A stretch of 64,000 bases of DNA, taken from positions 14,196 through 78,195 of the forward strand of contig CAYMXN010000002.1 of the NCBI GenBank assembly GCA_964394435.1, written 5' to 3'. Within the stretch, counting starts at the first letter, position 1, and each line of letters opens with the position of its first letter. This stretch comes from an uncultured Candidatus Saccharibacteria bacterium. Its GTDB lineage: Bacteria; Patescibacteriota; Minisyncoccia; UBA6257; 1-14-0-10-44-23. The translations under genes were made by a program, and so were the position numbers. This document shows, in pieces, positions 12,321-60,203 of the stretch. The notes under the pieces were generated by a model. It did not search any database, was not told where the DNA came from, and worked only from the letters and a program-made list of their open reading frames with translations.

Positions 12321-12587
12321 ATGACTCGCGAAGAATTCCTTTCGCTCCTTTCGGAGCTGTACAAGAGCGGGAAGATCAAGGCGACCCTCGGACTCCGCAA
12401 GGGGTTCGATCGTGGGACGATTCTCCTGCGTAAGTCAGGCGACGAGGACTGCCACCTCTCTACCGGAACGGTGGTGGTGTTCATCGCCAAGTTCCTCAAC
12501 CCGGACAAGCCGAGCTGGCTCTGCATGGCCTACGTCAACGCGGGCAAGGACATCGACCTCTCCCCCGAGGACTCGACCGCGGCCTAG
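12321..12587 (+). CDS. hypothetical protein, GC-rich cassette A (88 aa)
   Basis: Promoter-like TTGACT-17-TAATAC at about 12266-12295 and GGAGG 6 nt before the ATG. The ORF is GC-rich (about 60 percent) and is followed by a hairpin terminator. Confidence 0.55.
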   Translation: MTREEFLSLLSELYKSGKIKATLGLRKGFDRGTILLRKSGDEDCHLSTGTVVVFIAKFLNPDKPSWLCMAYVNAGKDIDLSPEDSTAA

Positions 12588-21424: not shown

Positions 21425-21495
21425 TGCCAGATCGTCTAATGGTAGGACAGCGGACTCTGAATCCGCGAATCTTGGTTCGATTCCAGGTCTGGCAG
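21425..21495 (+). tRNA. tRNA-Gln (anticodon CUG)
   Basis: Manual cloverleaf: acceptor TGCCAGA/TCTGGCA, D arm GTCT..GGAC, anticodon stem GCGGA/TCCGC with loop CTCTGAA, T arm CTTGG-TTCGATT-CCAGG. U1-A72 as in bacterial tRNA-Gln. Confidence 0.85.
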
Positions 21496-21551
21496 CAAAG
21501 TTAAAATAGGTTCGGAGTCCGAGGAGCTTAACAGATTTAAATAATTAAATT

Positions 21552-21953
21552 ATGAATAATTTTGAGCTGGAAGGATGGGACGAAATAAATCAAAACGGAG
21601 GTACTATTGGAACGGGTATAAATAAATCTATTCACAAGCTCACCGTTGCAATATTCAACTCTGGCTCAAAAACCTCTACTCATGTAGGTTATCTTAAGGA
21701 TAAGGTTGAACAGCTAAATAAGAATCTGGAAGAATCGAGTAAATCCTCCGATAGGAATTCCAGAGCGATGAAGTATTTAACCGGAGCTTTGGTTTTTCTG
21801 GGTATCGTGCAAGTTCTAGTAGCTTGGTTAAGCTATTCTGCCGATCGATCAATAATTGGAACTAAGAAAAATTGCTATAAAACTGCACTTCAAACTTCTG
21901 ATATAGAATTAAACTATAGAAGCTGCCTTCATAGCAATGGACTTTCAGAATAA
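21552..21953 (+). CDS. hypothetical single-TM protein in AT-rich island
   Basis: 133 aa with one predicted TM helix (YLTGALVFLGIVQVLVAWLSY). About 33 percent GC. Confidence 0.4.
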   Translation: MNNFELEGWDEINQNGGTIGTGINKSIHKLTVAIFNSGSKTSTHVGYLKDKVEQLNKNLEESSKSSDRNSRAMKYLTGALVFLGIVQVLVAWLSYSADRSIIGTKKNCYKTALQTSDIELNYRSCLHSNGLSE

Positions 21954-21977
21954 ATATGCTTCAAATAGTGTAATTCT

Positions 21978-23009
21978 ATGGAAGAAAGAACAAGTCCTAA
22001 GCAACTTAAGTCAGATACAAGACAGTGGAATTCTGGCAGGGTTCATTTTGCAGTCATTGGTTGGCCAGGAAAACCTGAGGATAATTATATTGTTTTTCAA
22101 AAAAATTTCTTTGGAAAAACGAAAAACCAAGACCAAAAATTCAATTTACGTTTTAGAGATTGGCAAAATCTCAAGAAGCTTATTGATGGCGAGTTGACCC
22201 CTATTACTGAGTGGGAAAAGACAATTTCTGTCGTTGACAAAGAAAGTCTCGAAAAACTCATAAATGATGATCCTGATATTTTTTCAAAAGTCCTAGCAAG
22301 TCCGAATATATTAAAGTTGAGCGATTCCAGCTTCGAATCTCTTGATCGAATTGCAGTAAAAATATACGAAGTTAAGGCAGAAAAAATTGATCTAATCTTA
22401 AAAAAGATAGCTGAGACGCCATCAGCAGATCTCGAAAAGTTTAGTACCCTATTGAATGATTTGAGACTAAACCAGATTTCAATGATGACCACTTTGGTTT
22501 ACCAGAAATTAAAAATAATTGATTTGCTTGAAAAAGTTATCATATCTCCTAGAAGTAAAGAAAAGGATGTACATCAGATTTTTGAAAAACACCCATGGCT
22601 TTTGGGGAGAGCTTTCGAAATCGTTTCAAGTGATAAGGCGCTTATAAATTATCTAGAAACAAATTTACAAGAAGACCCAGAAACCCGCGTAAGACCTGAT
22701 ATAATCGCCAGCACTATTCCTTACACAAATGATGTCGTAATTATTGAACTTAAAAAACCAGGGATTAAACTTAAGGCAAAACATATTGGACAAGTCCTGG
22801 AGTATAAGGCATTAGTACAAAGACATAAGCCAAATGTAAAGAATATAAATTGTTTTGTTTTTGGTTACGAGAAAGATACCACTTTTACTTTTTCAAAAGA
22901 TGCAACAATAAAGACTTTCTCAGAATTAGTATCAGAGCTTAGGCATGAATACAAAGAATATCAAAAAGTATTAGATGTAGGAAAAGATCTTGAAGTAGAA
23001 AATTTATGA
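21978..23009 (+). CDS. PD-(D/E)xK nuclease-domain protein, Shedu(DUF4263)/NERD-like candidate anti-phage defense protein
   Basis: C-terminal region KEKDVHQIFEKHPWLLG...RPDIIAS...NDVVIIELKKP...QVLEYK shows the D...E-x-K restriction-endonuclease-fold motif and the hPWLlG element I associate with DUF4263. The N-terminal 200 aa were not recognised. Confidence 0.55.
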   Translation: MEERTSPKQLKSDTRQWNSGRVHFAVIGWPGKPEDNYIVFQKNFFGKTKNQDQKFNLRFRDWQNLKKLIDGELTPITEWEKTISVVDKESLEKLINDDPDIFSKVLASPNILKLSDSSFESLDRIAVKIYEVKAEKIDLILKKIAETPSADLEKFSTLLNDLRLNQISMMTTLVYQKLKIIDLLEKVIISPRSKEKDVHQIFEKHPWLLGRAFEIVSSDKALINYLETNLQEDPETRVRPDIIASTIPYTNDVVIIELKKPGIKLKAKHIGQVLEYKALVQRHKPNVKNINCFVFGYEKDTTFTFSKDATIKTFSELVSELRHEYKEYQKVLDVGKDLEVENL

Positions 23010-23107
23010 TATTCCGAAAAATGGTGAAGTGATAAGATTATTGTAATTATTATAAAACACTTGTGGGGGTGAGGTATGAAAATATCCAAATCCGATGAGG
23101 TCGACAA

Positions 23108-23704
23108 ATGAATAAAAACGAATTCCCTCGAGCAATTCAGTTTCTAGAAAGTTTAAATGTCTCCTACTATATCCATGCCGGATTTGCGATGCACCTACAT
23201 GGACTCCTGTCTGACCTCGATGATTTAGATGTGCGCATCGACCACCCAAATCTCGAGCAGGTTTTAAAACAAGCAAAGGAAAATTTTGCCTGCCCCGTGC
23301 TATTAACCATCGGTGGCGAATATGATAATGGGCAGTATCGCTTTGGTCGTATAGAGATCGAAGCATCAACCCCTATCGATATCTGCTCATCAATGGGAGT
23401 TATTAATGATTGGGGCACCGTCGACTTCCCTCCCTTCGCGACCTCTTCGCTGAATAGCACGGCAATCAACTATCATGGTGTGTCGGCGCGAGTTGCCTCC
23501 CCGGAGACATTGCTGTTGTATTACCTTATCTTACGCCGGAAGCAGAATAAAAATGACAAAGAAAAAATTAGAGCCCTATTTTTATCAGGGAAAATTAATG
23601 AGGATCGATTCCGCGCGCTCTTAAAAAATAACAAACATGAATCTCAAATCCTAAACCTATATCGGTATTATAAAAAAATAGCTTCTAAACCTAGGAATAA
23701 GTAG
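23108..23704 (+). CDS. nucleotidyltransferase, Lnu/ANT-like (Pol-beta superfamily)
   Basis: VSYYIHAGFAMHLHGLLSDLDDLDVRID follows the hG[GS]x9-13Dh[DE]h NTase signature. Overall pattern resembles lincosamide/aminoglycoside nucleotidyltransferases. Confidence 0.5.
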   Translation: MNKNEFPRAIQFLESLNVSYYIHAGFAMHLHGLLSDLDDLDVRIDHPNLEQVLKQAKENFACPVLLTIGGEYDNGQYRFGRIEIEASTPIDICSSMGVINDWGTVDFPPFATSSLNSTAINYHGVSARVASPETLLLYYLILRRKQNKNDKEKIRALFLSGKINEDRFRALLKNNKHESQILNLYRYYKKIASKPRNK

Positions 23705-23726: not shown

Positions 23727-24503
23727 ATGCTTCACGATTTCCTCATCTTCGCCCTTAAACAGGCGCGGGCGGCGCTGTTTGCCGGAGTGTTTTTGTTTTT
23801 GATTTTCGCCTCAAAATATATTGCGATTCCGGGATTATATCGCTACGACTTTCTCTTTTTGGCCGCAGTAGCCATTCAGCTCCTGATGCTTCTGTTTAAG
23901 CTCGAGACAGTAGATGAAGCTAAGACTATCGTCCTCTTTCACCTCATCGGTCTTATCCTTGAGATTTATAAAACCAGTCCAGCGATTGGGTCGTGGACGT
24001 ATCCGGAGCCTGGGTACCTGAAGATTTTTACCGTGCCACTGTATAGCGGATTTATGTACGCTTCGATTGGCAGCTATATCGCTCACGCGTGGAAGGGCTT
24101 TAACCTTAAACTCATCAACTCCCCTCGCTATCTCTATAGCATCATCCTCTGCGCACTTATCTATCTCAACTTTTTTACCAACCACTTTATATATGACTTT
24201 CGTCTTTTTCTTATCGCGGGAATCTTTATCTTATACCGAAAAGCTTACGTTGAGTTTACGCCGGATAAGCGCACCTATCGCCTTCCGCTTAATGTCAGCT
24301 TTTTACTCATCTCGCTCTTTGTGTGGATAGCGGAAAATATCGGAACGTTTTATGGCGCGTGGCAGTACCCTTCGCAGATTCACGCGTGGCAAATTGTTTC
24401 GTTTCAAAAAATCACCTCGTGGTTTTTGATGGTGATTATCTCCTTTATCATCGTCGCGTATTTAAAACATGTTAAGGCGGAGCGTACTTTGAATGCCGCT
24501 TAG
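23727..24503 (+). CDS. polytopic membrane protein (DUF817-like)
   Basis: 258 aa, about 8 predicted TM helices. Length and hydrophobicity pattern are consistent with the DUF817 family. Confidence 0.5.
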   Translation: MLHDFLIFALKQARAALFAGVFLFLIFASKYIAIPGLYRYDFLFLAAVAIQLLMLLFKLETVDEAKTIVLFHLIGLILEIYKTSPAIGSWTYPEPGYLKIFTVPLYSGFMYASIGSYIAHAWKGFNLKLINSPRYLYSIILCALIYLNFFTNHFIYDFRLFLIAGIFILYRKAYVEFTPDKRTYRLPLNVSFLLISLFVWIAENIGTFYGAWQYPSQIHAWQIVSFQKITSWFLMVIISFIIVAYLKHVKAERTLNAA

Positions 24504-24575
24504 TTTCTTGGCTGGTTTTTTGCTTTATGTAAAAATACTGCTTCCGTTTGTCGGCGTAGTGTCGACGATGGACCT

Positions 24576-24989
24576 ATGAGGTGTACTTTGAAGCGTTCCT
24601 TTCTGCTCGCACTCGCGCTGATCGTGATGGCACTCGGCTTCCTGAACTCCCCGCTGGTCGAGCCGGCCAACGCTGGCGGCTTCACCATGCTGCTGCCGAA
24701 CACCCCGGTGTTCTCGATTGGGGTCTGGAGTCTGGAGACCGACGACTTCAAGTCGGTGGTCGTCCCTGCGGACCGGGCCGCCGACCTCTGCGCGGCGCTG
24801 GGCATCTCCATAAGCCAGGGCACGTTTAGCACGGCGGCCCAGGTCGTCACACTCAACCCGAACGCCACGGCGATCGTGACGTGCGATTGTCAGCCCACCC
24901 AGGGCCTATCCACGTACTGGGGAGTCCAGAGTACGTGCTGGCAGGACCAGTACGCACAGTTCTCTTTCGAGCAGGTCAACACACGCTGA
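24576..24989 (+). CDS. secreted Cys-containing small protein, GC-rich cassette B
   Basis: Signal peptide (..LLALALIVMALGFLNSPLVEPANA), mature domain with CDC...C...C. GC is about 62 percent. Terminator follows. The start could instead be the TTG at 24588. Confidence 0.5.
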   Translation: MRCTLKRSFLLALALIVMALGFLNSPLVEPANAGGFTMLLPNTPVFSIGVWSLETDDFKSVVVPADRAADLCAALGISISQGTFSTAAQVVTLNPNATAIVTCDCQPTQGLSTYWGVQSTCWQDQYAQFSFEQVNTR

Positions 24990-24995
24990 CCCGCT

Positions 24996-25032
24996 CTCGC
25001 CCCAACGACTTCGGTCTGCGGGGCTTTTTTAT
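24996..25032 (+). terminator. intrinsic terminator of cassette B
   Basis: GCCCC...GGGGC stem followed by TTTTTTAT. Confidence 0.55.
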
Positions 25033-25622: not shown

Positions 25623-26408
25623 ATGGAGCAACCAACAGGACTACATTTTGATGACGCGAATAAGTTTGAAGTGCCTCGCGGCATCGTTGACGAGAGTGGA
25701 ATCGAACAGGTGCGCAAGTTCGAGATACCGGGTGGACGATTTGCTTTTATTACTCACCGAGGTGGACGGCCGGAAAAACCAAACGAGGACTGTGTAGTGC
25801 TCGATCCTGAACATAAAGCGTTTGCGGTTGTTGACGCGATGGGTGGACAGAGCAACCCCCTACTCTCTAAGCAACTGACGAGCGAGGAGCTCTTGAAAGC
25901 GTTTACTACTAATGAGCCTCTTGTGCGCGCACACTATAGTGCGATGAGGCGAATGGAGAGCGAGAACCGTAATGGTGGTGCGTGTTATAGCGCCTTTCGT
26001 ATTAATGGCAAGATGCTCGAAGCTATCCAAGGAGGAGACACGAGCATTGTTGTTGTAAATACGATCAATAGAAAAGTAAAACTAGGAGCTACGGGAGGCG
26101 AAAACCTTGCAATGGATCTGCGCCAGGCGATACAAAAAAGCTATCATGGCGTAGAGCCTCCAAGTACCGCAGCTATTGAGCTCCAAAATGGTGATCGCAT
26201 CTATGCTATGAGTGATGGCGCGTGGGAAAACTTCAGCACCGAAAGACTCTTAAGCAAAGAGATGCTTCGACTTCCTATTGATACGGTCCTTAAAATGGCA
26301 TACGAAGAAGCACTTCAGGAGATGTTTCAAAAAACAAGAGGACCTGAATGGGGCAATCCTGATAACTTTACGCTTTTCGTCTACGAAAAAGACTCTGCGA
26401 TTACATAG
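25623..26408 (+). CDS. PP2C-family Ser/Thr protein phosphatase
   Basis: NEDCVV...AVVDAMGG (motifs 1-2) and AMSDGAWENF (the xSDG motif) of PPM phosphatases. Confidence 0.78.
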   Translation: MEQPTGLHFDDANKFEVPRGIVDESGIEQVRKFEIPGGRFAFITHRGGRPEKPNEDCVVLDPEHKAFAVVDAMGGQSNPLLSKQLTSEELLKAFTTNEPLVRAHYSAMRRMESENRNGGACYSAFRINGKMLEAIQGGDTSIVVVNTINRKVKLGATGGENLAMDLRQAIQKSYHGVEPPSTAAIELQNGDRIYAMSDGAWENFSTERLLSKEMLRLPIDTVLKMAYEEALQEMFQKTRGPEWGNPDNFTLFVYEKDSAIT

Positions 26409-35878: not shown

Positions 35879-36562
35879 CTACCCCTTGCCCCCTGGAGGA
35901 GGCGCGAAGGCGGCGATCGGAGTCCAGCCGAGCAACTTGTCACCTGGCTTGGACCCCTCCGGACCCTGGATCATCGGGAGCGGATCGGTCCGCTGCCCGA
36001 AGTTGAGCTCGAAGCCCGTCGCCAGACGCGAGATGAGCACGTACTCCTTCTCCTGCCCCACCGGAGCCGTGGGCAGGACCGTCGCCCCGTTGAGGACCCA
36101 GGCGCGGCGCTTGTCGCACGTGCCGACGTTGCCGCAGACCTTGACCCAGCCCGCCTCGCCGACCTGCAGCGTCGCCACCGTGAGGTGGTAGAACTGCGAG
36201 GGAACGACGGCCGGGACCGGCTTGGACGACTCGCTGGGCGACTTCATCGCCGGCACCGTCGGGCAGTCCATGTCCGACTGCGGGAGACCCGGTACGGTCG
36301 GAGCCATGAGCCACTCGTTGAAGCCCGAGGCCTCCTTGGAGTTCGGCGAGGACGTGAACGTCTTCACCGCCTGCTTCGTCTCCTTGTCGTCGCCGCTGTT
36401 CCAGCAGAGGCCGACGATGATGACGATGATCAGGACGATGATACCCCCGATCGCCACGAGGCGACCGCGGGTGATCCCCCCGGGCACCTCGTGCGGGACG
36501 GGGTCGCCGCCGGACGAAGCCGGGGCGTGGGGGTCGTGGGAATCGTGGGAATCGGCGGACAC
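35879..36562 (-). CDS. single-pass membrane protein, very GC-rich cassette E (about 66 percent GC)
   Basis: His/Asp-rich cytoplasmic N-terminus, TM helix LVAIGGIIVLIIVIIVGLCW, Pro/Cys-containing ectodomain. AGGAGG 5 nt before a GTG. Strong promoter immediately upstream. Confidence 0.55.
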   Translation of the reverse strand: MSADSHDSHDPHAPASSGGDPVPHEVPGGITRGRLVAIGGIIVLIIVIIVGLCWNSGDDKETKQAVKTFTSSPNSKEASGFNEWLMAPTVPGLPQSDMDCPTVPAMKSPSESSKPVPAVVPSQFYHLTVATLQVGEAGWVKVCGNVGTCDKRRAWVLNGATVLPTAPVGQEKEYVLISRLATGFELNFGQRTDPLPMIQGPEGSKPGDKLLGWTPIAAFAPPPGGKG

Positions 36563-36600
36563 AGACACCTCCTTATTGGACTAGAGACATAGCCGTTTTG

Positions 36601-36640
36601 GCTTTTACTATAATAGCATACTATTTATATAAAGTCAATA
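36601..36640 (-). promoter_or_regulatory. near-consensus sigma70 promoter (TTGACT-17-TATTAT) driving cassette E
   Basis: Minus strand reads TTGACTttatataaatagtatgcTATTATagt, about 35 nt before the RBS. Confidence 0.55.
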
Positions 36641-36744
36641 GTTCGGGCAAAGGCGGCAATTCGAACATACCCCCTTCGACTTCCTATCTCAGGCCATTCG
36701 GCTCTGAAAGCTTCAGGCTCGATGAGGTCATTTCCCTTTGGAAA

Positions 36745-36980
36745 ATGAAATAAAAAGCAGCGCCGAAGGAAGGTCCTTCTGCGCTGCGGAGAGAAAGCCG
36801 GGTGACTCTTTGGTTTGCTTTGGCCTGGGAAATGGGGATGTGGAGGTCGAGGTCCGCAGGGACGCCCGACGAAAGCCTTAGCTCACCGCTAAGCCACCCG
36901 GAAAAGCGGTATCGCCGAGGGTTTGGAGACTACCCTCTTTGATGTACTCAAAGAGTACCCTTCCTCCGAAGGCTCGTCAA
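36745..36980 (-). other. structured noncoding region downstream of ftsX (about 235 nt) ending in an intrinsic terminator
   Basis: Multiple nested inverted repeats (CCGGGTG...CACCCGG, GCTTAGC..GCTAAG, GTCCCTGCGGAC). Terminal hairpin CAGCGC-N17-GCGCTG plus CTTTTTATTT. Confidence 0.4.
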
Positions 36981-39913: not shown

Positions 39914-39957
39914 AAAACAACCAGTTTTGAAATATAGACTGGTCGCATTTTATCTTG

Positions 39958-40030
39958 AGCCACCTCGCGGATTTGCACCGCGGACCTTCTCGTTACGAGT
40001 GAGATGCTCTACTATCTGAGCTAAGGTGGC
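39958..40030 (-). tRNA. tRNA-Thr (anticodon CGU), probable
   Basis: Reverse-complement folds as acceptor GCCACCT/AGGTGGC, D arm GCTC..GAGC, anticodon loop CTCGTAA, T arm CGCGG-TGCAAAT-CCGCG. One A-C mismatch at 31-39 lowers confidence. Confidence 0.6.
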
Positions 40031-40073: not shown

Positions 40074-40147
40074 TGGAGCGGGTAACGAGAATCGGACTCG
40101 TGTCTCAACCTTGGGAAGGTCGCGTTCTACCACTGAACCATACCCGC
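40074..40147 (-). tRNA. tRNA-Gly (anticodon CCC)
   Basis: Reverse-complement GCGGGTA..TACCCGC acceptor, D arm GTTC-AGTGGTA-GAAC, anticodon loop TTCCCAA, T arm ACGAG-TCCGATT-CTCGT, encoded CCA. Confidence 0.8.
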
Positions 40148-59954: not shown

Positions 59955-60035
59955 GGGGATGTGGCGAAATGGCAGACGCGCACGTTTCAGGTACGTGTGA
60001 GGCAACTCATGTGGGTTCAAGTCCCACCATCCCCA
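59955..60035 (+). tRNA. tRNA-Leu (anticodon CAG), type II with long variable arm
   Basis: Acceptor GGGGATG/CATCCCC, anticodon stem CACGT/ACGTG with loop TTCAGGT, long variable arm, T arm GTGGG-TTCAAGT-CCCAC. Confidence 0.85.
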
Positions 60036-60203
60036 CCCTTCGGTGCGCTCAGGGCGTGCCAGAAATAGCAAAAAGTTTATAGTTGTGAGTTGAGGTTTGT
60101 CCCTCATCTGACCACTGTAAGCTTACAGCTATAAGCTACGTTATCTTGTCGGAGATATACGAACTACAAAAATTATAATTTATTATTAACATTAAAATTA
60201 TTT

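Follow-up and report, generated by a model that had tools for sequence, protein, structure and literature searches.

A GC-rich, separately transcribed gene for a putative secreted cysteine-containing protein in a small clade of Candidatus Saccharibacteria

A 64,000-nucleotide (nt) stretch of an uncultured Candidatus Saccharibacteria genome (contig CAYMXN010000002.1, positions 14,196 to 78,195; hereafter the window, to which coordinates refer unless another locus is named) contains a small gene with a high guanine-plus-cytosine (GC) content, which is referred to as cassette B and forms a complete single-gene transcription unit at 24540-25032 on the plus strand. The initial annotation, made from the letters of the DNA, had regarded it as a GC-rich secreted small protein containing cysteines, and the features which it described are present in the sequence with small corrections. 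The window has 48% GC and encodes a type IV pilus operon, DUF817, TPM, LemA, and ribosomal proteins, all consistent with Saccharibacteria; the genomes of G1 Saccharibacteria have 47 +/- 3% GC (PMC7427843). The immediate neighbours of cassette B are the genes for DUF817 and a PsbP-like protein, and the wider neighbourhood also consists of cellular genes (DUF817, PP2C, TPM, LemA, and the pilus operon). A scan of one genome per GTDB species revealed one further locus, named L007, in a metagenome-assembled genome of an uncultured member of Candidatus Saccharibacteria, whose protein is 82% identical; other homologous loci are numbered likewise. The elements of cassette B are as follows, where GC1, GC2, and GC3 denote the GC fraction at the three codon positions and dN and dS denote nonsynonymous and synonymous divergence.

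24508..24536, plus strand: putative promoter, with a -35 element TTGGCT (TTGACC in homologs), 14 nt, and an extended -10 element TGTAAAAAT
24544..24571, plus strand: hairpin (UCCG..GUCGGC..GUCGAC..GGA) in the 5' untranslated region, present in all four loci folded singly and retained in the five-locus consensus
24578..24583, plus strand: Shine-Dalgarno sequence GAGGTG, with GAGGT invariant in five of five aligned loci, 4-8 nt before the start codon used in each
24588..24989, plus strand: coding sequence (CDS) of a 133-residue precursor starting with TTG (the alternative ATG at 24576 would give 137 residues), 63% GC, GC3 0.85; homologs P0001-P0004; dN 0.10, dS 0.35, and dN/dS 0.29 against L007
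24588..24674, plus strand: predicted signal peptide of 29 residues, MKRSFLLALALIVMALGFLNSPLVEPANA, with predicted cleavage at A29/G30 and an n-h-c architecture with A-x-A in four of four homologs
24675..24986, plus strand: mature domain of 104 residues, ~11.2 kDa, acidic, with four Cys (based on physico-chemical values and invariant positions)
24882..24890, plus strand: codons TGC GAT TGT of the invariant T-C-D-C-x-P motif, which holds the only cysteines kept in all family members
24999..25031, plus strand: intrinsic terminator GCCCC-aac-GAC-TTCG-GTC-tgc-GGGGC followed by TTTTTT, with a hairpin at the equivalent place in every homologous locus

Cassette B is a real, self-contained protein gene. 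The strong codon-position periodicity of 24588-24989 (GC1/GC2/GC3 = 0.58/0.48/0.85, i.e., GC1 < GC3 > GC2) marks it as the coding frame, and this periodicity, together with the dN/dS value (which indicates a protein under constraint by purifying selection), 35 positions that are invariant across six sequences, and insertions and deletions in multiples of three down to 44% identity, demonstrates that the frame is translated. Some observations could be taken to suggest a GC-rich structured RNA, a chance open reading frame (ORF), or a chimeric assembly rather than a protein gene: GC-rich DNA opens long ORFs in several frames (e.g., 24500-24868 on the minus strand), and the transcript forms slightly more stable structures than shuffled versions do (z = -2.1 and -3.0), although the full-length transcript that shows this excess also contains the hairpins of the terminator and the leader. 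However, such an explanation is extremely improbable, as the frame, the signal peptide, and the invariant residues persist to 44% identity, ORFs in other frames differ between loci and are not conserved, and no riboswitch or other known RNA was matched in Rfam even at E <= 1. In addition, the junctions of cassette B were assembled independently in three Logan runs and one NCBI record, and orthologous loci occur in other lineages; the independent assembly of the same junctions in several samples argues against a chimera or an assembly artefact.

With respect to the start codon, an ORF finder reported 24576-24989 (plus strand, 137 residues from ATG), but the TTG at 24588 (MKRS...; CDS 24588-24989, 133 residues) appears more likely, because GAGGTG overlaps the ATG and precedes the TTG by 4 nt, the JGI gene calls of orthologs begin at the TTG, and distant homologs begin with MK or MR. 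All loci have homologous promoters, leaders, ribosome-binding sites (RBS), and terminators, with hardly any variation in the promoter and RBS blocks. In an alignment, the promoter block was found to be kept in the window, L004, L008, L005, and L006 despite proteins that are only 44-46% identical, and its pattern occurs twice in the window versus 0.1 times expected by chance; this conservation and the consensus elements suggest that 24508..24536 acts as the promoter, with the window copy scoring under the threshold of a generic promoter scan. Both promoter and leader are AT-rich and of native type. The leader has ~45 nt, and its weakly supported hairpin, for which only one compensatory pair and energy z-scores of -0.8 to -2.0 were obtained, might have a role in mRNA stabilisation or translational control. 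The hairpin and T-run at 24999-25031 correspond to the separate terminator that had been proposed at first. An exact 10-nt direct repeat, GTACTTTGAA, was also observed at 24484-24493 and 24583-24592, flanking the promoter and leader; as ~0.5 such repeats are expected by chance per 1 kb and the first copy is not kept in L004, it is probably meaningless.

The N-terminus of the precursor shows the layout of a signal peptide, with a positively charged n-region (M-K-R in the window, MK or MRR in homologs), a 16-residue uncharged core, the segment NSPLVEPANA, and a predicted cleavage before GG with Ala at -3 and -1. Across the family, the uncharged core spans 13-17 residues (maximum Kyte-Doolittle hydropathy (KD) over 11 residues, 2.2-3.6), which is shorter than a transmembrane helix, and the predicted cleavage sites in four members are of the types A-N-A/G, A-S-A/D, and A-T-A/D. 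The signal peptide with an A-x-A-like site (EPANA) that had been noticed in the window is therefore a common property of all four members. No lipobox (L-x-x-C) for signal peptidase II is present, as no Cys was found inside or just past the signal peptide in the family members. The twin-arginine motif is absent as well (the window has K-R; the TIGR01409 TAT_signal model reached E = 0.16 and 12.4 bits, versus a cut-off of 16.7, in one of four members). These sequence features, which are common to all homologs, support the view of a secreted small Cys-containing protein and point to a product exported by the Sec pathway and processed by signal peptidase I.

The mature part, estimated initially at about 100 residues, has 104 in the window with eight D/E versus three K/R; in the family it comprises 101-104 residues (~11 kDa) with 8-12 D/E versus 2-4 K/R and contains no further hydrophobic segment (maximum KD over 19 residues <= 1.4). 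The cysteines of the window protein lie at mature positions 39, 70, 72, and 88, which corrects the proposed order CDC...C...C to C...CDC...C. Family members have 3-5 Cys, and those outside the conserved motif move: the window has an extra Cys at mature position 88, while its 82%-identical relatives have one at position 52, so that the count of four is kept and the position moves. The C-terminus (Y-x-Q-F-x-(F/L)-E-Q-x-N-x-R) is also conserved in the family, and the predicted secondary structure of the mature protein is mixed alpha/beta. No function could be assigned by homology, as no match was found in Pfam, NCBIfam, PHROGs, or PADLOC, and the best profile match in the PDB had E = 1.5.

The product had also been suggested to be a bacteriocin-like antimicrobial peptide. 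It is small, secreted, Cys-containing, fast-evolving, and lineage-specific, and a gene for an ABC-transporter ATPase directly follows it in L005 and L006. However, no bacteriocin, leader, or immunity family was matched in the databases mentioned above, the leader is of the Sec A-x-A rather than the double-glycine type, the mature protein is acidic, and, with 104 residues and a mixed predicted alpha/beta structure, it is larger than typical class II peptides. In addition, the ABC neighbour is absent from the window and from the L004, L007, and L008 loci, which leaves no conserved partner gene. A bacteriocin-like activity is thus very improbable.

A large-scale search for relatives revealed a family restricted to one small clade within Candidatus Saccharibacteria, tiny organisms that grow as epibionts on other bacteria. 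Only four sequence clusters were found among ~15 billion proteins. An exhaustive phmmer search of 1.84 billion representatives returned three relatives, and single-sequence and profile searches of 5.8 billion clusters returned the same four clusters, with no actinobacterial relative, of the kind that a foreign origin had suggested looking for, in either set. With tblastn, no relative was detected among 50,697 records of phages or 72,556 of plasmids. Scanning JGI metagenome contigs for sequence patterns added no cluster to the four, and a like scan of viral contigs revealed no locus. Apart from L007, the clusters have a Saccharibacteria-type context wherever it is readable.

The gene order is also conserved: DUF817 is followed by cassette B and then by a 186-residue gene in the window, L001-L003, L004, L007, and L008. 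Nucleotide identity to L007 is ~85% in cassette B and DUF817 alike. The cassette B protein evolves faster than those of its neighbours, being 82% identical to its L007 counterpart versus 88-99% for most core neighbours. In L005, the gene is located directly after a tRNA-Gln(CTG), the ABC-ATPase gene comes next, and the pilus operon beside it encodes proteins with 58-76% identity to those of the window; L006 agrees with L005 in the spacer before the gene and in the gene that follows. The same tRNA-Gln(CTG) is found in the window at 21425-21496, 3 kb upstream of cassette B.

Two observations were also made in this neighbourhood. In the window, three ORFs of low GC content (33-42%) form an islet behind the tRNA-Gln(CTG) (21425-23704 including the tRNA), and one of them encodes a 343-residue protein with a sub-threshold match to the C-terminal nuclease domain of Shedu SduA (E = 6e-5, 23.6 bits versus a cut-off of 27) and no PADLOC match; in L007 (5057-9132 of that locus), wholly different low-GC genes lie between tRNA-Gln and DUF817, and the region may represent a variable defence islet. 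On the other side of cassette B, a PP2C/SpoIIE-like phosphatase gene (25623-26408, plus strand) is ~45% identical to its L007 counterpart in surroundings of 76-96% identity, with saturated synonymous sites, which indicates either a replaced or a very fast evolving gene.

The most unusual property of cassette B is its composition. The GC content of the CDS is 63.4%, close to the ~62% read initially, and its GC3 of 0.85 compares with values given as 0.43-0.56 or, at the widest, 0.27-0.56 in the six nearest genes. A GC3 above 0.7 occurs in only three of ~80 window ORFs, the other two being cassettes A and C, which are located as follows.

12321..12587, plus strand: cassette A, an 88-residue ORF with GC3 0.85, its own TTGACT promoter, a GGAGG RBS, and a strong terminator, between fmt and sodA
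35879..36568, minus strand: cassette C, a 229-residue membrane-anchored ORF with GC3 0.91 and its own promoter, RBS, and terminator

Every copy of the cassette B family has a GC3 of 0.85-0.93 in genomes of ~49% GC with flanks of GC3 ~0.5. The GC content changes abruptly at the borders of the CDS (33-40% over the preceding 60 nt, compared with 70-75% over the opening 60 nt of cassette C).

Comparison of synonymous sites between the window and L007 provides evidence of how this composition has behaved over time. Among 13 genes compared, cassette B has the smallest dS (0.35, versus 0.62-1.8 or saturation in the rest), with a dN of 0.10. At four-fold degenerate sites, C<->G changes account for 12 of 19 differences (63%) in cassette B versus 82 of 563 (15%) in nine neighbours (Fisher p = 3e-6). 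Class-discordant sites (G/C in one genome, A/T in the other, counted among four-fold sites with G/C in one or both members of the pair) make up 7 of 62 (11%) versus 433 of 918 (47%) in neighbours (Fisher p = 8e-9), which corresponds to an approximately four-fold suppression of synonymous GC<->AT change. When C<->G changes are counted per four-fold site with G/C in both genomes, cassette B (12/55) and the nine neighbours (82/485) are equal, implying that cassette B has diverged for as long as its flanks and has descended vertically since the split of the window and L007 lineages. Pairs of distant homologs agree at 43-56% of four-fold sites, versus 39-45% expected at saturation, yet these sites are still ~93% G/C. 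Taken together, the high GC3 is maintained and is not the residue of a recent import.

These results bear directly on the origin of the gene. A recent horizontal acquisition from a high-GC donor (an actinobacterial host or its phage), which would make the GC content an un-ameliorated scar, is suggested by the GC3 of 0.85 and the raised GC2, both resembling a genome of 65-70% GC, and by the position of cassette B within a variable region, 3 kb past tRNA-Gln. The hosts of Saccharibacteria are high-GC Actinomycetota. It was also reported that a prophage of Schaalia, the host of TM7x, binds and can infect TM7x (PMC13578794), which would provide a route for high-GC DNA. However, the searches described above returned no relative outside the four Saccharibacteria-type clusters, the syntenic L007 ortholog shows the same nucleotide divergence as its flanks, and the gene is present at this site in L004, L007, and L008. 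Furthermore, cassette B matches its neighbours in synonymous C<->G divergence but shows a four-fold suppression of GC<->AT change, distant copies are synonymously saturated yet still G/C, and the AT-rich promoter and leader of native type are homologous across loci. Mobility signatures are lacking around cassette B, where the repeats are short and at chance level only and no integrase or transposase was found among the Pfam-scanned neighbours. McLean et al. found no strong sign of horizontal gene transfer (HGT) from Actinomyces in TM7x (PMC7427843). A recent acquisition is therefore unlikely, and for the time span separating the window and L007 it is largely refuted. Of the foreign origin assumed initially, the resemblance of the composition to that of a high-GC organism was confirmed, whereas the missing donor relative, the syntenic ortholog that diverged like its flanks, and the retained G/C third positions speak against a recent import.

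Known forms of foreign DNA provide further comparisons. In the model reportedly proposed by Lawrence and Ochman, compositionally atypical HGT islets ameliorate toward the recipient genome. Cassette B resembles such an islet in a GC content and GC3 far from the genome mean and in its location near a tRNA gene and a variable islet, but no donor was found, the gene is not absent from relatives, and C<->G turnover has proceeded without a drift toward a GC3 of ~0.5. Phage morons, a concept said to come from Hendrix and Juhala, likewise consist of a single gene with its own promoter and terminator, inserted between resident genes and sharply different from them in base composition. Unlike a moron, cassette B is not in a prophage (its neighbours are cellular, with no phage genes among them, its own protein has no PHROG match, and no viral-contig locus is known from the scans), it is syntenic across lineages, and its deviant composition is maintained instead of decaying. 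With regard to integron gene cassettes, which have an attC site and lie near an integrase or in an array, cassettes A, B, and C are scattered rather than arrayed, the 3' hairpin of cassette B is a plain terminator with a T-run, and no integrase was found in a Pfam scan that covered part of the window's ORFs and included no attC model.

The two sister cassettes extend the picture to different degrees. The cassette A ORF has no signal peptide and no Pfam, PHROG, PADLOC, or phage match. Homologs of cassette C (47-70% identity) occur only in Saccharibacteria-type contexts with GC3 of 0.88-0.89, and no protein similarity was observed between cassettes B and C when this pair was compared. In comparison with L009 (2859-3524 of that locus), the cassette C protein is 45% identical between neighbour proteins of 97-98% identity; promoter, leader, and terminator are nearly identical, and the nucleotide identity of the CDS is 47-65% versus 83-85% in the flanks. 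Class-discordant four-fold sites are also rare in this pair (13/71 versus 369/676; p = 3e-9), and C<->G change exceeds that of the flanks (19/58 versus 47/307; p = 0.003). Cassette C is thus both GC-locked and hyperdivergent, whereas cassette B is GC-locked only, and the pattern of cassette C resembles that of a hypervariable, allele-like gene embedded in conserved expression signals.

Several additional features were observed near these genes. A counterpart of cassette C is also present in L011 (1039-1734 of that locus). Between ftsX and the cassette C promoter, a non-coding stretch of ~300 nt (36640-36980, minus strand) ends in a terminator-like hairpin and a T-run; it is partly conserved with L009 (~82% over 36810-36900), has no credible Rfam match, and may represent either a small RNA or a short ORF. 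In L006, a small membrane ORF with GC3 of 0.90 (2-154 of that locus, minus strand), cut by the contig end, is divergent from the cassette B homolog and has an AT-rich promoter of the TTGACT type like those of cassettes A and C.

With regard to the force that holds the composition, GC-biased gene conversion (gBGC) has been proposed for bacteria (PMC4450053). The GC-richness could then be a by-product of such conversion at a recombination hot spot, where surface or secreted genes under diversifying selection are often exchanged, with no selection on codons or mRNA. The bias against GC->AT change acts at all codon positions, as GC1 and GC2 are also raised, and the hyperdivergence of cassette C between well-conserved flanks, with nearly identical promoter and terminator, is what allele swapping by recombination should produce. 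However, the GC step follows the CDS borders, which conversion tracts should not respect, and cassette B is neither more divergent nor more mosaic than its flanks. A GC3 shift from 0.5 to 0.9 also far exceeds the effects reported for gBGC in bacteria. A purely conversion-based origin of the GC-richness therefore seems rather unlikely, although less so than a recent import. As a general directional force, selection on synonymous sites fits the CDS-limited GC step, and GC-biased conversion fits the divergence of cassette C; the present data cannot decide between them. Codon optimisation for high expression was ruled out, as the genes for ribosomal proteins L11 and L9, NusG, and the pilins have GC3 of 0.48-0.57. 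In a separate observation, all four tRNAs of the window carry a wobble C, reading G-ending codons: Gln-CTG (21425-21496), Thr-CGT (39957-40030), Gly-CCC (40074-40147), and Leu-CAG (59955-60037). No earlier description of GC-locked genes in Saccharibacteria was found in the full-text literature searched, whose coverage is incomplete.

Based on these data, cassette B is probably best explained as a resident monocistronic gene for a Sec-exported acidic CxC protein of ~11 kDa, processed by signal peptidase I, which has been inherited vertically and whose GC content is held by a directional force. The gene would have been passed on vertically at least since the split of the window and L007 lineages, with an origin probably in a common ancestor shared with L005 and L006. 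Its high-GC codon composition may stem from an ancient transfer, with no identifiable donor, and a force acting today (synonymous-site selection or GC-biased conversion) would remove GC->AT changes and so hold the composition. The protein would act outside the cell at the host-bacterium interface, for instance in binding, or in redox or metal chemistry via its CxC motif; such a role is suggested by its predicted export, its fast evolution, and the scarcity of signal-peptide proteins in epibionts.

Several points weigh against this explanation. The copies in L005 and L006 are found at a somewhat different spot (after tRNA-Gln and before the ABC ATPase), which makes deep vertical descent plausible rather than proven, and the whole cassette might instead have moved between Saccharibacteria. 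The synonymous tests rest on 62-71 sites per cassette (62-65 for cassette B) and one genome pair each, in a very small family of four clusters. Folding of the CDS by itself gave inconsistent z-scores (-2.5 in the window and -1.3 in L005), which provide no clear support for selection on mRNA structure as the force holding GC. The structure prediction that had been recommended initially yielded no usable fold, with AlphaFold2 pLDDT values of 41.0 for the precursor (four sequences) and 41.8 for the mature domain (six sequences), and no homolog of known function was found, so that the extracellular role is an inference; export is predicted from sequence features.

A more far-reaching idea is that the clade keeps a whole set of GC-locked genes, each combining an AT-rich promoter of native type and a strong RBS with a CDS of ~90% G/C in third positions and a terminator, and encoding fast-evolving exported or membrane proteins. 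G/C-ending codons would be selected in them as a functional device, serving mRNA stability or coupling expression to the nucleotide or tRNA supply from the high-GC host, and the product of cassette B would be an extracellular CxC factor at the host interface. This idea is tentative and, as a whole, somewhat doubtful.

Among proteins already described, the small hypothetical proteins with Sec signals that are encoded beside VirB4/VirB6 in Saccharibacteria carry signals for signal peptidase II and form arrays of 4-6 genes next to type IV secretion system (T4SS) genes (McLean et al. 2020, PMC7427843). They are similar to the cassette B product in being small, signal-peptide-bearing, and without assigned function in an epibiont, but cassette B has a signal peptidase I A-x-A site, stands alone, and has no T4SS neighbour; this distinction follows the published description rather than a comparison of sequences. 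By analogy only, the secreted Cys-containing effectors of eukaryotic pathogens are also small and confined to particular lineages; they evolve rapidly, retain few residues, and have cysteines that change position. They belong to another domain of life, use another export route, and share no homology, and an effector role of the cassette B protein would be a guess.

In the Saccharibacteria TM7x, less than 3% of CDS carry signal peptides (PMC7427843). As Saccharibacteria depend on contact with their host and have few exported proteins, a conserved, separately transcribed, fast-evolving secreted protein such as that of cassette B is a reasonable candidate for host interaction. Moreover, an unusual GC3 is commonly taken as evidence that a gene was acquired horizontally in recent times, whereas two genes of the window have retained an extreme GC3 while descending vertically, with a four-fold deficit of synonymous GC<->AT change. 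Should the same be true of Saccharibacteria genomes in general, they would offer a clear natural example of synonymous constraint on individual genes, or of GC-biased conversion confined to very small regions, in a minimal bacterium. This would also call for caution against composition-based HGT calls in the genomes of these organisms.

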